52,969 bases of DNA from a virus. Taxonomy: Duplodnaviria; Heunggongvirae; Uroviricota; Caudoviricetes. The position numbers and the translations under genes were made by a program. Where the stretch lies: positions 1 through 52,969 of the IMG/VR virus record IMGVR_UViG_2718217885_000014, one strand, 5' to 3'. Every line of letters begins with the position of its first letter. Position 1 is the first letter of the stretch. This document shows positions 30,994 to 37,566 of the stretch, one piece after another. Below the pieces are notes generated by a model, which had not been told where the DNA came from, did not search any database, and saw only the letters and a list, made by a program, of their open reading frames with translations.

Positions 30994-31193
30994 ATTGAAT
31001 AAATTTCCGGTTTCTTCCACCATCGCACCGGCCAGGCGACTATGAGGGGACAACGCCGCGCTCCGTTAACGCAGTAAACCCCGGTGTGTATCGTTTTTGA
31101 TTATCCCCGCACACTCGCGCAGAGGAGTCTCCCCGTAGGGCTGCGGTCTCTGTTAATGCGGAAATACGGCGACGATACAACGCATTGAAAAAA

Positions 31194-31661
31194 CTATTTC
31201 AGGCACTGAGTACGGATATATTCCTGAAGCGTTCTCAATGCTGCCTGGTCGCTGATGATTCCGTCTCTGATACCGAGAACGTTTCGTCCAGCAACTGGAG
31301 AGAGTTCGACGCTGGCATCATTGCCCACGCGGGCGGTGGCGGTGGCTTCACGCACGGAGCCTGGACAGGTGGCGTTGATCCGCAGGCGCTTACGACCAGC
31401 GGTAACATCAGCACGCAGAGTTTCATTTTCAGCTCTCGCATCGGCTAATTCCCTCGAGTATTTTGCATCGAGCGCAGCAACATCGTGCTGGCGCTGCTGC
31501 ATGTCAGCGATGGTGGCGGTCGCCTGCTTCAGCTCACTGACTTTTTTATCACGCTGTTCTTTGTAGGCGATGGCGTTATCACGGTAATGATTGACCGCCC
31601 ACGACAGGCAGACGATGATGCAGATAACCAGAGCATAAATAATCGCGGCGACTCTGCTCAC
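31194..31661 (-). CDS. Rz: i-spanin Rz
   Basis: N-terminal transmembrane segment [34 protein letters not shown] resembling lambda Rz; probable GTG start overlapping the R stop (GTGA at 31658-31661); track ORF extends to a TTG at 31676. Confidence 0.8.
31235..31426 (-). CDS. Rz1: o-spanin Rz1 lipoprotein, embedded in the +1 frame of Rz
   Basis: [15 protein letters not shown] lipobox signal then proline-rich [10 protein letters not shown], as in lambda Rz1; lies entirely within Rz. Confidence 0.75.
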
Positions 31662-32191
31662 TGATCTATCCCCCAACAGGCTAATGCGCTTTCCTGGTCA
31701 CGACGAATAACCTGTCCATAGCAGTTATTTGAACGTATGCGGCAATCGCGCCCACCATCTTTTATCCACCAGCGAATCGCCTCGCATGCACCCTTACGAT
31801 CACCGGCATTCAGCCGCTTATAAAACGTCGACGGGAAACACTTACCGGGGCCAATGTTATAGGGACAAAATGACGCTATACCCGCTTTCTGTGGTTCGGT
31901 CAGTGGTACTTTAATATTGCGTTCCACCCATGCCAGCGCCTTATCACGTTCAATAGCGTTAACCTGGTCGCATTTTTCCTTCGACAGCTTCATTCCCGGT
32001 ATGACGGGCTTACCATCCACCATTGTGGCACCACGACAGATGGTCCATATACCGGAACCATCGCGGTATGCCGTAGTGTGGTTACCCTCTTTTTCATCCA
32101 GAAACTGGTCAAGTATTTGAGGAGCAGACGCGCCTGCAGCAATCAGCGCCAGAACGGCAGCCGACAGGCCGTATCTGATTTTTGCGTTCAT
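31658..32191 (-). CDS. R: phage lysozyme R (T4-lysozyme family), probable SAR endolysin
   Basis: 177 aa; weakly hydrophobic Gly/Ala-rich N-terminus ([19 protein letters not shown]) then E-D-T catalytic region ([20 protein letters not shown]); resembles K-12 prophage lysozymes RrrD/RrrQ from memory. Confidence 0.85.
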
Positions 32192-32254
32192 GGATATTTA
32201 TCAGGATTTATCGGTTTCTGCCCACGGACAGGTTTATCTGTTCCGGTCAGTGGC

Positions 32255-32605
32255 TTAAGGTTGTGATTCCGGAGGAGTCTTCAGAGAACCAGTAATTCTT
32301 CCTGGTAGCTCTCCTTTGTAGGTTATCCACACATTCTGCGCCTCTAAAATTACGGGGCGCTTTTCCGGCGACTGCTCATCCCCTTCACATAACCCGGCAG
32401 CAACATCCAGGAAGACCTGTCTGATGCGCCTTCTGGCTGCTGCTTCATAAAACTCCAGCGCGGCACCTTCAACACGGTCCAGCGAGATGTCCAGGTCAAA
32501 AATTTCACCGTCAAAGCGTTTTTTGTCCCGTAACGCTAAAGTTACCGTAACTTTATTCTCAAAATTGCGGATCCCTTTCACAATCAGTTCATAGTTTTGA
32601 GTCAT
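32255..32605 (-). CDS. hypothetical protein between holin and lysozyme (YdfR-like)
   Basis: 116-aa ORF occupying the position of ydfR in the K-12 Qin lysis cassette; function unknown. Confidence 0.6.
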   Translation of the reverse strand: MTQNYELIVKGIRNFENKVTVTLALRDKKRFDGEIFDLDISLDRVEGAALEFYEAAARRRIRQVFLDVAAGLCEGDEQSPEKRPVILEAQNVWITYKGELPGRITGSLKTPPESQP

Positions 32606-32609
32606 TGAA

Positions 32610-32825
32610 TTACTCTCCCCGTGCAGCCTTACGCTTGTCTTCTCTGATTTTGAAGTACAGATTTGTCAGATAAGTCAGGAAGCCCAGAACCAGACTCCCC
32701 AGTACACCAATCGCAGCCCACTGTGACGGACTGACCTGATCAAGCCACTGTAAAAACCAGTAGCCAGCACTGCCTGCGGAGGTGCCGTAGGCAATGCCCG
32801 TTGAAATTTTGTCCATGGATTTCAT
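32610..32825 (-). CDS. S: class II holin (phage 21 S-type pinholin) with dual-start motif
   Basis: 71 aa from [63 protein letters not shown], near-identical to phage 21 S; Met1-Lys-Ser-Met4 dual start at 32814-32825. Confidence 0.85.
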
Positions 32826-32936
32826 AACCCCCACCTCGCAGATGCGGGCGTTGTGTAATGGAAACAAAAAAGGCCACCAGCGGCCCGTAAAAACAACACC
32901 CAATCAAAGGCACCCGCAGATGCCTTTTGCGTGGTG

Positions 32937-33089
32937 TTATTCAGATTTGCGCAGTAAAGGCCGGAGCACGACCAGCACCATCACCACCAGCACACCATCT
33001 GCCAGTACCGACATCAGCCGTCCGGTAAAATCCACCACCACTACCAGAAACAGCAGGATGGCAGCCAGCACAAGGCGCGCACTTTTCAC
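32937..33089 (-). CDS. putative small two-transmembrane protein (not in ORF track)
   Basis: In-frame GTG at 33087-33089 overlapping the TGA stop of the upstream TerB-like gene (GTGA); encodes about 50 aa with two hydrophobic stretches (LVLAAILLFLVVVV and VLADGVLVVMVLVVL); internal ATG at 33012-33014 is an alternative start (25 aa). Confidence 0.3.
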   Translation of the reverse strand: MKSARLVLAAILLFLVVVVDFTGRLMSVLADGVLVVMVLVVLRPLLRKSE

Positions 33090-33511
33090 AGGTACTGCTC
33101 CAGTGGTAGCTGCAGCGCCTGAGCAATTTTCTTCAGTTGCGCTTCTTCATCCGGGCCAATGCCGTCCTGGTCAGCGATATCCAGACACAGGCACAGCACA
33201 TTAACTGCGTCATCAGTACCGGCAACATCAGCCAGCTGACGAAGGGCTTCAGCATTGGCAGAGCGCGGCGACGCTTCATAACGGGCGCGGATATTTGCAC
33301 TCATTTGTGCAATCTCACCGGAGAACGGCGCAAAGGCAGGAAGTGCTGCAATGGTTTTCTCCAGTACCGCGATTTCTTTCGCGTCACAGGTGTCGTCAGC
33401 GTATGCAATGGAATACGCACCCCAGACGGTCGCCTCCACTGCGTCGCGGTTCTCCATCTTCTTCACTTCGGTAATGGCCTTGCGAGTTTTCTTTTTGAAA
33501 ATACCAAACAT
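33086..33511 (-). CDS. TerB-like (tellurite-resistance TerB / DjlA N-domain fold) protein
   Basis: 141 aa with TerB-like pattern (acidic helices, LDIADQDGIGPDEEAQLKKIAQALQL); located between the late tRNA genes and the holin. Confidence 0.55.
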   Translation of the reverse strand: MFGIFKKKTRKAITEVKKMENRDAVEATVWGAYSIAYADDTCDAKEIAVLEKTIAALPAFAPFSGEIAQMSANIRARYEASPRSANAEALRQLADVAGTDDAVNVLCLCLDIADQDGIGPDEEAQLKKIAQALQLPLEQYL

Positions 33512-33685
33512 CGTGACTTTTCCTTTTAGTGGGTGAGCCTGCGCCCGGGGGTGACCAGCCCACAGAGAAAGTCACACTGACCATCCCGTAAGCTCACCCC
33601 TGAAAGGCTCTGTGGTTTTTGATATGCGCCGGGCGTGGCGCGGATACAAAAAAGGCCCGCCAAAGCGAGCCGGGAAAAATAAGTC

Positions 33686-33762
33686 TGGCGCGTTGTACTG
33701 GATTCGAACCAGTGACCGATTGCTTAGAAGGCAATTGCTCTGTCCGACTGAGCTAACAACGC
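33686..33762 (-). tRNA. tRNA-Arg (anticodon UCU)
   Basis: 77-nt cloverleaf folded by hand: acceptor GCGTTGT/ACAACGC, D-arm GCTC/GAGC, anticodon stem ATTGC/GCAAT with loop CTTCTAA, T-loop TTCGAAT, encoded CCA. Confidence 0.8.
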
Positions 33763-33775
33763 ATGATGCAGATAA

Positions 33776-33856
33776 TGGACCGCCATCGAGGACTCGAACC
33801 CCGCACCAACAACCCTGTTATCGTGTCGTCTGCTCTTCCTGATGAGCTAATGGCGG
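33776..33856 (-). tRNA. tRNA-like gene with atypical anticodon arm (anticodon not assignable; possibly degenerate)
   Basis: Acceptor CCGCCAT/ATGGCGG, D-arm GCTC/GAGC, T-arm CGGGG-TTCGAGT-CCTCG and CCA are canonical, but 27 nt lie between D and T arms and no standard 5-7-5 anticodon stem-loop could be folded by hand. Confidence 0.45.
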
Positions 33857-33863
33857 TATGTTA

Positions 33864-33939
33864 TGGTGGCCCTTGCTGGATTTGAACCAGCGACCTGGCG
33901 ATTATGAGTCGCTCGCTCTCACCACTGAGCTAAAGGGCC
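33864..33939 (-). tRNA. tRNA with CAU anticodon (Met, or Ile2 if lysidine-modified, as ileZ of phage 933W)
   Basis: 76-nt cloverleaf: acceptor GGCCCTT/AAGGGCC, D-arm GCTC-AGTGGTGA-GAGC, anticodon loop CTCATAA, T-loop TTCAAAT, CCA. Confidence 0.8.
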
Positions 33940-33979
33940 GGGCGCAGGATAATAACGGTACGTAACTAATTCTGCAATA

Positions 33980-35038
33980 TCATCCGTTCTGACTGACTAA
34001 ATCCTGAACTTCCTTGACCGTCTGCTCAAAACGCTCAGTCTCCAGCTCAACGCCAATTGCACGACGTCCCAGCGCCATCGCTGCTTTGACCGTCGAACCC
34101 GACCCCATGAAAAAATCTGCAACCAGATCTCCCGGACGACTGCTTGCGCTGATTATCTGCTGCAACATTTCTGCCGGTTTTTCGCACGGATGTTTCCCGG
34201 GATAGTACTGCACCGGTTTATGCATCCACACATCGGTGTACGGCACCTGCACAGTCACACCGAAATACCGCCGCAAATTTTTATATTCTCTCAGCAGTTC
34301 CGTATACTGCCGGTTCAGTTCACTGTATGTGCTGACCAGCTGGTGGTGTGGCTGCTCCAGTTCACCGCGCTGATGTTTTTCTGCTGCAACACGCGCAAAC
34401 AACGCCTGCAATTTGTTGTAATCAGCTTCGTTCGGTAACTGCCACTGACTGGTACCAAACCAGTGCGAAGCCATGTTTTTCTTTCCGGTGGCTTCCGCTA
34501 TCTGTTTTGACGTTATTCCCAGTTCGGCACGAGCATCCCTGAAATACGATATCAGCGGTGCCATTATGTGCTGTTTGAGTTCCCTTTCTTTTGCCGCATA
34601 GCCGTCACTTTTGCCGCGATATGGCCCCTGGTAATGTTCAGCAAACAGAACGCGCTCTGTGGCAGGAAAATATGCGCGCAGACTTTCTTTATTACACCCA
34701 TTCCAACGTCCAGACGGCTTCGCCCAGATGATATGGTTAAGCACGTTGAAACGTTCACGCATCATGATCTCAATATCAGATGCCAGGCGATGCCCACAGA
34801 ACAGGTAAAGGCTTCCGGCAGGTTTCAACACCCGCCAGAACTGGGCCAGACAGTGGTCCAGCCACTTAAGATAATCTTCGTCCCCTTTCCACTGATTGTC
34901 CCAACCGTTGGGTTTCACCTTGAAGTAAGGCGGATCGGTAACAATCAGGTCAATGGAATCATCAGGCAGGGACTGAATAAAATGCAGGCAATCAGCGTTG
35001 ATTAAATCAACACTGTTTATTTTTACAGTATTTTTCAT
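33980..35038 (-). CDS. DNA methyltransferase (N6-adenine/N4-cytosine family, beta-class), no adjacent endonuclease
   Basis: 352 aa; catalytic DPPY motif near N-terminus (LIVTDPPYF) and AdoMet-binding FxGxG near C-terminus (DFFMGSGST). Confidence 0.85.
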   Translation of the reverse strand: MKNTVKINSVDLINADCLHFIQSLPDDSIDLIVTDPPYFKVKPNGWDNQWKGDEDYLKWLDHCLAQFWRVLKPAGSLYLFCGHRLASDIEIMMRERFNVLNHIIWAKPSGRWNGCNKESLRAYFPATERVLFAEHYQGPYRGKSDGYAAKERELKQHIMAPLISYFRDARAELGITSKQIAEATGKKNMASHWFGTSQWQLPNEADYNKLQALFARVAAEKHQRGELEQPHHQLVSTYSELNRQYTELLREYKNLRRYFGVTVQVPYTDVWMHKPVQYYPGKHPCEKPAEMLQQIISASSRPGDLVADFFMGSGSTVKAAMALGRRAIGVELETERFEQTVKEVQDLVSQNG

Positions 35039-35188
35039 GGATCAGTAAGCGTAACTCTGGTAGGCTCACTCTGCTTTTGCGCTAAAGCAGTGGGCCGTGG
35101 TTCGCTTGTGACCAGTAAGCATGAGCGAATGGCTGGCAGGTGCTACCAACACCCACCAGCCGCCCATTTTCACAGCAGGAAACCGCCA

Positions 35189-35392
35189 TTACTGGCAGCG
35201 TCTGAATTTATTCCCGTACCCGCCGTTATCCTTCGCCAGACCCGCCAGAACTAACTGAGTCAGTATTAACTGGCACCGGACTTCGCTTACTCCGGTAGTT
35301 CTCGTCATCATGCGTGGCGTTACCCACTTGTCAGCAGGTAAGAAATGAAGGACTGCGGCGGCGGTTTCTGTCATATCTTGCTGTTTTAGCAT
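35189..35392 (-). CDS. hypothetical small protein
   Basis: 67 aa from ATG at 35390-35392 (MLKQQDMTETAAAVLHFL...); track ORF extends 28 codons further upstream, probably non-coding. Confidence 0.4.
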   Translation of the reverse strand: MLKQQDMTETAAAVLHFLPADKWVTPRMMTRTTGVSEVRCQLILTQLVLAGLAKDNGGYGNKFRRCQ

Positions 35393-35512
35393 GTTTTTTC
35401 CCTTCTGGTTAACATGACATACCAATAACTCTTGTCTAAAAAGCCAGCAAGATAAAAAGTCAGTATTCACGACCACCAGCGTGTTTACTGTACTGCACCA
35501 AGTTTACAGGTA

Positions 35513-35540
35513 CAAAAAAACCGCTCAGCGGCGGGTTTAA
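35513..35540 (-). terminator. candidate rho-independent terminator (possible tR' equivalent)
   Basis: Minus-strand GC-rich hairpin (CCGC-TGA-GCGG core, extendable) followed by seven U (plus-strand A-run 35514-35520). Confidence 0.4.
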
Positions 35541-35588
35541 GTTGTGTGGCGAAGTAACCACTCTTAACAGCATATTTGATTTTTTACG

Positions 35589-35617
35589 ATTGTAAACGGT
35601 TGATTATTCATCTCCAA
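35589..35617 (-). promoter_or_regulatory. candidate sigma-70 promoter (possible late promoter PR' equivalent)
   Basis: Minus strand: -35 TTGGAG (35612-35617), 17-nt spacer, -10 TACAAT (35589-35594); about 60 nt upstream of the hairpin/U-run at 35513-35540. Confidence 0.3.
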
Positions 35618-35661
35618 TAAAAATAATTGTGTAGGTATGCCCTTAACAATGGATAAGAAAC

Positions 35662-36108
35662 ATGAATAAAATGACTGTATTATTACTTAGCGCAACTATC
35701 ATTTCAGGTTGTACTTCTTCCGTACCATTGATAAAGAAAACTCAATCAGGAAAACCTGAGGGGGTTTATCAAAATACGACAAAAGATAAAGTCAAAGATG
35801 CCCTTGTGAATTACTGCAATAGTAGAGGGTTGATAATTTACAACGCGGATAACAGCAGTGTTATATGTGGTAAAGAACTGGAAGGCGGGTCTGCTGTTTT
35901 TGGACAAATGTTAATCGGCAATGCCTATTCAACAACCCCGGTATCAAAAGTCAGATTTACTATCGCTCAAGTTAATAACGATACAAAAGTGTGGGCCGAT
36001 ATGTGGATGGAAACTCAAATGGCAATGGGGCAAGTACAACAAATGGCTATAACAGACAACGCAAGCAAAAACACTATCCAACAACGTCTTGATGAATTAA
36101 AACCTTAA
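35662..36108 (+). CDS. lipoprotein of unknown function (moron)
   Basis: 148 aa with lipobox (LLLSATIISGC); on the strand opposite to all flanking phage genes; AT-rich upstream region, hairpin downstream. Confidence 0.75.
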   Translation: MNKMTVLLLSATIISGCTSSVPLIKKTQSGKPEGVYQNTTKDKVKDALVNYCNSRGLIIYNADNSSVICGKELEGGSAVFGQMLIGNAYSTTPVSKVRFTIAQVNNDTKVWADMWMETQMAMGQVQQMAITDNASKNTIQQRLDELKP

Positions 36109-36128
36109 GTAAATTAATTAAATAAAAT

Positions 36129-36151
36129 GGGGAGAAATAAATCGACTCCCC
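36129..36151. terminator. hairpin between lipoprotein gene and Q (likely terminator, mainly for minus-strand transcripts)
   Basis: GGGGAG-N11-CTCCCC stem-loop; on the minus strand it is followed by an A/U-rich tract (AUUUUAUUUAAUU). Confidence 0.4.
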
Positions 36152-36193
36152 ACACATTAAACTGATTCAATTACCCCCTCAATAAGAGGTCTT

Positions 36194-36574
36194 CTAACGA
36201 TCCATCTCTAGCTCAATTTCTAACATCATTAACATGCCATCAACTACACCTTCAGCCTTTTGCAATAAACGCCCAACCCAGCAATCAGAACGCCCATGTT
36301 TACGGGCAAGCGCCATAAACGTCATACCACCTACATAATAATCCACTAATAAATCGTGCAAATCGCTGTTGTTCTTTTTCAGGCGAGCCATGCACCCACA
36401 AATGATCATCGCGTCATCGTCACAACATTGCGGGCGGGATTTTACTTTTGAAGGGATTAGTCCTTTAAATCCTGCAGCAATAGACGACCAGGTGACATCC
36501 TCGTGATTATTTGCCACCCATGCCCCCCAACGTTCAAGAACCATTTGAATATCACGCATCAACTTTCTCCACAA
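36194..36574 (-). CDS. late-gene antiterminator Q (QuuD/phage 82 Q-like)
   Basis: 126 aa; from [76 protein letters not shown] it matches K-12 QuuD from memory. Confidence 0.85.
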
Positions 36575-36576
36575 AA

Positions 36577-37566
36577 TCAGGCCAGAACGCCAATTGCCAG
36601 CGCACGATCGATAAAACGAAATATCAGCTCCAGCTGGGAGCCATACTTCTCTTCAAATGCCACGGTATCCGCATGCAGCTCGTCGTGATGCTTTCTGCAC
36701 AAAGGCAACACAAAAAGGTCATGCGCTTTTGTTCCCATTCCACCCTGACCGTGACCTATCAGGTGGTGGGGATCATCAGCAGGCTTTCCACAACATGCAC
36801 ACGGCTGTGTCTTAACCCAGCGCGTGTACTTTTCATTAACCCAGCGGCGACGTTTGGGGCGTAACATAAAAGACTCCGGCGACTCCGGATCCACTTTCAG
36901 CGCCAGCACCTTTTTCGCTTTATCCTGGATGATGCTGGTGGCAGGAACCGAAGGCACAAGGTCACACTCCCGGGTGACAGACGGCACAACAGGCGTCGGT
37001 AATCTCAGTGCCTTACGGGCTGCACTTTCCGGTAAGGCATCCGCCAGGTCATTACGAGCCAGCCACCAGCATAGTTCCGGCATTGTCACAACGTGACTGT
37101 CATCAAAACCGAGATCCCGACGCACGACAGATAACACCCACCGGGCACAGTTATCCGTTGCCATTGATTCCAGCCGTTCCGTGAACTGATCGCGCAGCTG
37201 GTTATCGCAGTGCCAGCACAGACGGATTGCGCCCGGAGCGTGTCGCATTGTGGTCATATTCTCGCTGTGCCAGTCGGAATGAGGCCACTGGCAGCCTTTT
37301 TCACGAAGTAACCAGCGTTCAAGACATTCCACGCCACCAGCACGACGGATTACCGCCTCATTGCGGAACATAGCCCGAACGGCAGGATCATCCGCCAGCG
37401 GTTGTGATGCCGCCGGAACGGCACCACTGGCAAAAGATGAATAACGTTCCGGCTCAGGCTCCAGCAGGACACGCCCCTGCATAAACAGGGGCATCAGTTC
37501 TGAACCGGGTCTGAACAATACGATCCCCATACGTGGGGCAATTTCAGGGGTCAGTAGTGCTCTCAA
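36577..37566 (-). CDS. DUF968-domain protein (YdfU-like)
   Basis: 329 aa with C-terminal Cys/His-rich region ([43 protein letters not shown]); nin-region position. Confidence 0.7.

Follow-up and report, generated by a model that had tools for sequence, protein, structure and literature searches.

The two overlapping genes at positions 32937–33511 of virus record IMGVR_UViG_2718217885_000014 are, as judged from their sequences, the lambdoid-prophage form of the tciA-tciB pair of phage P1. The whole stretch of 52,969 nt is hereafter called the window; all coordinates refer to the window, and the cassette genes all lie on its minus strand. With a probability of about 0.6, the unit, which joins a TerB-family gene to a DUF3927 gene, is a dispensable, mainly late-expressed modifier of envelope or ion physiology and not a core component of lysis, and it would most reasonably be described as a membrane-associated stress or exclusion module. 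As a discovery the identification carries little weight, because the genes, their families, and the link to P1 are already present in public annotation. Assembled here are the near-universal pairing of the two genes, their conserved overlap, the alternative partners, a conserved leader, and the independence from lysis genes, together with the limits of a defined 803-bp unit. Few accessory genes of temperate enterobacterial phages are commoner than the TerB/DUF3927 cassette and its DUF3927 relatives; hundreds of P1-like and Klebsiella phage-plasmids and a large number of Klebsiella prophages carry the cassette, which occupies the slot that Shiga toxin holds in other phages. An earlier note on this DNA had correctly described a TerB-family protein, an overlapping small hydrophobic ORF, and their slot, but it had missed the identity of the pair with P1 tciA-tciB and of the smaller product with DUF3927.

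The tciA-tciB pair and its two products

A megablast search against phage records recovered P1 tciA at 79.7% DNA identity. TciA has the same length as the window protein and is 85% identical to it (120 of 141 residues, no gaps, E 2e-90), and TciB is a DUF3927 protein that is 45% identical to the mini-protein encoded in the window (BLASTP E 2e-9). Gene order, the presence of a stop/start overlap, and the adjacency of tRNA genes are also common to the two phages. In the P1 record (NC_005856), tciA (426 bp), tciB (165 bp, one base of which is common with tciA), and tciC (108 bp) are flanked by tRNA genes and belong to the C1-controlled ban operon, whereas the window copy lies in a lambdoid late operon. 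In addition, the second gene starts with ATG in a TGATG overlap in P1 but with GTG in a GTGA overlap in the window, and a 133-nt leader that precedes the lambdoid form is missing in P1. A tblastn search with P1 TciC as the query found it in P1-type loci only, and none was present in a locus identical to the window (L002). The "tellurite/colicin/cell-division" label carried by the tci genes was assigned by homology only.

The tciA homologue (33086–33511, minus strand) encodes a 141-aa cytoplasmic TerB-family protein with six helices. The TerB-family profile search proposed in the earlier note came out in favor of this assignment, returning 29.0 bits against Pfam PF05099 (gathering cut-off, 24.4 bits; E 1.4e-6), a score just above threshold that came from two stretches with partial coverage of the profile. 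The protein matched PHROG 632 ("tellurite resistance") from end to end (E 5e-64), and RefSeq names it "tellurite resistance TerB family protein" (WP_000466935.1) in 100% identical DNA of E. coli 09-00049. A phmmer sequence search of the PDB returned only a chance-level match to PNPase (E 0.015) and no TerB structure, so that a fold comparison was needed, and in that comparison the all-helical fold matched TerB-like structures. Two acidic motifs of what we take to be the DGxxxxxE type can be read directly at residues 39–46 and 116–123, and the acidic residues conserved in the alignment are D39, D43, E46, D114, D116, and E122. Comparison of TerB homologues with the window copy gave omega values of 0.01 to 0.09, and TerB is under strong purifying selection. 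Within the first motif, codon 40 (33392–33394) specifies Asp in the window, where Gly is near-invariant elsewhere (ADG to ADD); the same variant is found in several viral contigs whose protein is 100% identical (L013–L017).

TerB of the ter operons (terZABCDEF; Klebsiella and IncHI2 plasmids) resembles the window protein in Pfam family, overall size, and all-helical fold, but its partner there is the polytopic TerC, whereas the partner in the window cassette is a 50-aa protein. RefSeq annotation of the identical region includes no TerC, TerD, TerE, TerZ, or TerA gene within 6 kb on either side. Since tellurite resistance requires TerC and TerD together with TerZ or TerA, as cited in PMC12054061, it is very improbable that the cassette is a genuine tellurite-resistance determinant, despite the family name and the RefSeq product name that suggest one; the Pfam TerB score, barely over its threshold, also argues against this function. 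An NCBIfam scan gave no matches.

The tciB homologue (32937–33089, minus strand; GTG start at 33089, TAA at 32937) encodes a 50-aa hydrophobic protein, MKSARLVLAAILLFLVVVVDFTGRLMSVLADGVLVVMVLVVLRPLLRKSE. It scored 49.2 bits against the Pfam DUF3927 profile (PF13064; threshold, 25; E 5e-13), with residues 4–48 aligned to positions 4–48 of the 53 in the profile, and it matched PHROG 1470 ("TciB-like") with an E value of 2e-23. The mini-ORF of about 50 aa had initially been taken as unannotated. It is real and of that length, but RefSeq already names its product "DUF3927 family protein" (WP_000833650.1) in the identical region of E. coli 09-00049, with the same 4-nt overlap. Hydropathy analysis supported the two hydrophobic segments described previously (residues 6–19 and 25–42), separated by a dip at D20–R24 and with a net charge of +2 at each end of the protein. 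For the two-TM description given along with them the indications diverge: AlphaFold2 modeled the protein alone as one continuous helix over residues 2–47 (pLDDT 91.7), and this single long helix counts against a hairpin topology. An N-in/C-in hairpin is nonetheless favored by the positive-inside rule because both ends carry a net charge of +2, and a two-TM protein would be plausible.

Bases 33089–33086 read GTGA, such that the GTG start of the mini-ORF overlaps the TGA stop of the TerB gene by 4 nt (33086–33089, minus strand), exactly as had been claimed. A Shine-Dalgarno-like GGAG (33098–33101, minus strand) lies within the TerB coding sequence, 8 nt before the mini-ORF GTG; the motif is also present in a divergent allele (L011) and reads GGAA in P1. 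Among 88 scored loci, the overlap was of the GTGA type in 86 and of the TGATG (P1) type in 2. An intact DUF3927 ORF lay directly downstream in 89 of the 90 fetched loci whose TerB homologue was full length, and a full TerB gene lay upstream in all 79 loci retrieved via the mini-protein, which represent its closest relatives only. Rearrangement has cut the downstream DUF3927 ORF in L071, and in L084 the DUF3927 ORF persists despite a premature stop in the TerB gene. Translation of the two ORFs is probably coupled through the overlap and the internal GGAG, which would yield the small protein together with TerB.

A chance origin of the mini-ORF, with the TerB gene alone being real, is scarcely credible. 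The ORF is short, starts with GTG, and has a relatively high omega against the window copy (0.1 to 0.7, with exchanges mainly among V, A, I, L, and M), all of which might be expected of a spurious frame. However, family models exist in both Pfam and PHROGs, the DUF3927 profile finds 868 cluster representatives of constant length (nearly all 50–51 aa), the frame was kept in 89 of 90 loci with a conserved start overlap, and a core of residues (R5, D20, F21, T22, S27, D31, G32, L34, V35, and P44) is invariant down to 44% identity. Omega values in this range combined with an invariant core thus indicate a real gene under weaker constraint. Within one locus pair, dS is often far lower for the mini-ORF than for the TerB gene next to it (0.27 versus 0.78 in L004; 0.15 versus 0.57 in L086), which could result from recombination mosaicism or from constraint at the DNA or RNA level.

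The divergent allele L011 (2122–2714) is a mosaic, in which the leader and the mini-protein are 88% and 70% identical to those of the window and the TerB between them is 43% identical. This TerB scored 61 bits against the Pfam TerB profile, above the window copy, and the GTGA overlap is retained. A tight, coevolving TerB-DUF3927 complex is argued against because the mini-protein evolves much faster than TerB and because it tolerates either a 43%-identical TerB, as in L011, or a 247-aa membrane protein as its partner, as described below. A single Logan contig (P0172) encodes a 196-aa fusion of P1-type TciA and TciB that arose through a frameshift at the overlap (...LEQLYLMVIKARL...); either a sequencing error or a natural fusion may account for it.

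An 803-bp cargo unit between Q and the holin gene

Upstream of the cassette, the window carries a Q-family antiterminator gene (36574–36194, minus strand), promoter-like and terminator-like sites at about 35596–35520 followed by a small ORF, an N6/N4 DNA methyltransferase gene (35038–33980, minus strand), and a tRNA block. The block consists of a tRNA with a CAT anticodon (33939–33864), a tRNA-like stretch that looks degenerate (about 33775–33855), and a tRNA-Arg (33762–33686), all on the minus strand. Both tRNAs were found by ARAGORN and Rfam, and an Rfam scan over 31000–37500 matched these two and nothing else. The degenerate stretch, listed as "tRNA-OTHER" by RefSeq in the identical locus, is the counterpart of argN in Stx phages. 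A plus-strand ORF (35662–36108; 148 aa; PHROG 3152, unknown function) whose product has a lipoprotein-like N-terminus is placed between Q and the putative late promoter/terminator. Downstream of the cassette are an S21-type holin gene (32825–32610, minus strand; Pfam "Bacteriophage P21 holin S," E 3e-35), a 116-aa YdfR/DUF1327 gene (32255–32605, minus strand), and then a lysozyme gene encoding a hydrophobic N-terminus, followed by Rz and Rz1. The YdfR/DUF1327 gene separates the holin gene from the lysozyme gene and splits the usual S-R pair, as it also does in phage PhiR49_2.

These coordinates confirm that the pair lies after the late tRNA genes and upstream of the S21-type holin gene. The further claim of the earlier note, that this is the slot in which Stx phages carry stx, agrees with the 92 to 97% identity of the tRNA block to those of Stx and phiP27 phages and with the gene order of a Stx2a phage (Q, ileZ-argN-argO, stx2AB, further genes, and holin). 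The window and PhiR49_2 have the tRNA block and the holin-YdfR-lysozyme-Rz genes in common, and unrelated sequence in PhiR49_2 replaces positions 32842–33644. This swap between common flanks delimits a variable cargo segment of 803 bp (minus strand; boundaries by blastn), and its variable presence between genes that stand side by side in related phages is a trait of morons. The known morons between Q and S (stx1/stx2, nanS-p, and Pas sRNAs) are similar in being inserted directly after an ileZ-argN-argO-type tRNA block, in their presence/absence polymorphism among similar phages, and in having a 3′ terminator. The cassette differs from them in having no recognized promoter of its own and a base composition near that of its neighbors. 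Base composition was considered as a mark of foreign origin and rejected, since the GC content of the cassette (54.8%) barely differs from that of the neighboring DNA (51.4%).

A noncoding leader of 133 nt (33512–33644, minus strand) travels with the cassette in lambdoid prophages. It was 84 to 99% conserved in 155 of the 179 loci compared, whatever lies further upstream, and its bearers include lambdoid prophages of E. coli, Citrobacter, Enterobacter, and Klebsiella as well as L011, with its 43%-identical TerB allele; P1-type and phage-plasmid copies do not have it. The leader folds with a z-score of −3.5 relative to shuffled controls, and the consensus fold predicts a long hairpin in which CCUUU is paired with AAAGG of the TerB ribosome-binding site. 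Covariation was sparse, with 3 pairs changed on both sides; 53 of 500 shuffles did as well and a control slid by +1 gave 4 pairs, so the structure remains a prediction. No Rfam family matched the leader, and a sigma-70 consensus scan of the minus strand over 33512–33690 found no site reaching 9 of 12 matches. The conserved leader could hold a nonconsensus promoter.

Terminator-like hairpins lie on both sides of the cassette. One found by a terminator scan just 3′ of the tRNA-Arg gene (33654–33671, minus strand) lies at the upstream edge of the cassette, inside the segment common with PhiR49_2, and in most loci a hairpin of varying sequence lies ahead of the leader. On the other side, the 110 nt 3′ of the mini-ORF contain hairpins and not an ORF. 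The same type of scan identified two in tandem there (32871–32942, minus strand; fold z-score, −3.2), of which the first (32942–32891) overlaps the mini-ORF stop codon and is followed by a U run, and the second (32886–32871) consists of GGGCCGCUGGUGGCCU followed by UUUUUG. Q-antiterminated late transcription would be the main source of cassette transcripts, given that the leader contains no consensus promoter and that the unit is bounded by terminator-like hairpins.

In E2348/69, L011, and PhiR49_2, the position of the tandem hairpins is taken by a PasD/STnc100-like sRNA gene, and the Pas sRNAs (PasA, PasC, and PasD) have been described beside TerB and holin genes (bioRxiv 10.64898/2026.05.13.724894). 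Assignment of the region 3′ of the mini-ORF to a PasA, PasC, or PasD sRNA was rejected, as PasA and PasD2 of E2348/69 found no match in the window.

Distribution, alternative partners, and candidate roles

DNA related to 32937–33511 was present in 345 of 5,426 complete E. coli genomes (about 6%), with 238 chromosomal occurrences and 171 on plasmids of about 90 to 120 kb. It was also found in 669 PLSDB plasmids, mostly nonmobilizable and from E. coli and Klebsiella, including P1-like phage-plasmids. TerB homologues with 75 to 97% identity occur in Citrobacter, Enterobacter, Klebsiella, Pantoea, Rahnella, Yersinia, Hafnia, and Plesiomonas. Klebsiella prophages have the order Q-TerB-DUF3927-holin, with holins of the Phage_holin_8 and Phage_holin_3_7 families, and their DUF3927 protein is listed in 3,008 blocks of the collection. 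A Franconibacter prophage has the pair between an antiterminator gene and a lysozyme gene, and a Klebsiella phage-plasmid has it away from lysis genes, with methyltransferase and RNase H genes as its neighbors. Temperate enterobacterial phages of at least three kinds inherit the two genes together.

DUF3927 genes are also found without TerB. In E. coli E2348/69 (L099; NC_011601.1, 740129–741328), the upstream partner is a polytopic membrane protein of 247 aa that belongs to no Pfam family, separated from the DUF3927 gene by a gap of 85 nt, and the PasD2 sRNA gene begins 41 nt after the DUF3927 gene. This E2348/69- and O157-type module is like the window cassette in its DUF3927 protein and its place in the same Q-to-holin slot; it differs in its unrelated multi-TM partner, in the lack of overlap between its genes, and in having PasD2 directly after them. 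It is commoner than the TerB form, being present in 700 of the 5,426 complete E. coli genomes (about 13%) versus 345, with a median of 5 copies and up to 10. A DUF3927 gene is also kept beside a truncated TerB gene in ETEC H10407.

These arrangements bear on whether the cassette might be a toxin-antidote or abortive-infection/exclusion pair, in which the mini-protein would be a membrane-damaging toxin that TerB neutralizes or regulates. Membrane toxins are frequently small hydrophobic proteins, coupled translation would fix the stoichiometry of the two products, and ter operons have been linked to phage inhibition and colicin resistance (PMC7371120, PMC9603915). However, the presence of multicopy DUF3927 without TerB in those 700 genomes, and its persistence beside a broken TerB gene in ETEC H10407 and L084, would be unexpected if TerB were a needed antidote. 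In addition, PADLOC-DB 2.0 gave no defense-model match for either protein at E values up to 0.1. We consider a toxin-antidote pair quite unlikely. A literature search for TerB in anti-phage or exclusion roles found nothing specific. Alternatively, DUF3927 could be a generic small inner-membrane module of temperate enterobacterial phages with interchangeable upstream partners, TerB in the window and the 247-aa protein in EPEC/EHEC prophages, which, together with a leader predicted to sequester the RBS, would form a regulated late-phase device that sets membrane potential or ion balance before holin triggering or excludes competitors. This broader proposal is unlikely; if true, many EHEC genomes would hold several copies of a so far undescribed control layer acting on lysis or exclusion.

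Given the placement of DUF3927 genes just upstream of three different holin types, a lysis-related role may also be considered. In its specific form, lysis timing would be regulated by the small membrane protein, alone or together with TerB, through modulation of holin triggering, for example by way of the membrane potential or of the pinholin itself. This would explain why the cassette directly precedes the lysis genes of the late operon, as well as the recurrence of DUF3927 between Q and the holin gene in lambdoid prophages irrespective of holin type (S21-type in the window, Phage_holin_8 and holin_3_7 in Klebsiella, and class II in E2348/69), and the mini-protein is holin- or antiholin-like in size and hydrophobicity. 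The P1 copy, however, sits beside tRNA genes and ban and not beside lysis genes, the Klebsiella phage-plasmid copy is likewise located elsewhere, and PhiR49_2 has the same holin-YdfR-lysozyme-Rz genes without the TerB/DUF3927 pair. Furthermore, CRISPRi knockdowns in P1 showed tciA, tciB, and tciC to be nonessential (PMC10695390), and stx, nanS-p, and sRNA genes are likewise accommodated in the Q-to-holin interval, a general cargo slot. A lysis-timing regulator is doubtful on this evidence. Consistent with a dispensable unit, tciABC has been lost from nearly half of the P1 subgroup-1 phage-plasmids (PMC9603915).

For a dispensable modifier of envelope or ion physiology, which is the reading we prefer, the following mechanism can be proposed. 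The small protein would be inserted in the inner membrane, and its most likely form there would be an N-in/C-in helical hairpin bearing the conserved residues Asp20 and Asp31; the TerB-fold protein would work at the cytoplasmic face of that membrane by analogy with TerB and TerC. The TerC-TerB complex is cited in PMC12054061 as a membrane-linked core unit of ter operons. This analogy may not transfer to the cassette because no TerC, TerD, or TerE gene is nearby. The effect on the infected cell could be, for example, protection against colicins, superinfecting phage, or membrane stress.

Four further, near-identical copies of this enterobacterial cassette, with 86 to 95% protein or 94% DNA identity (H21 [PP818812.1], L003, L008, and L012), come from records labeled Actinobacillus phage, Bacillota MAG, Pseudomonas lundensis, and Kocuria sabuli. 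These labels probably reflect contamination or misbinning and not the true host range.
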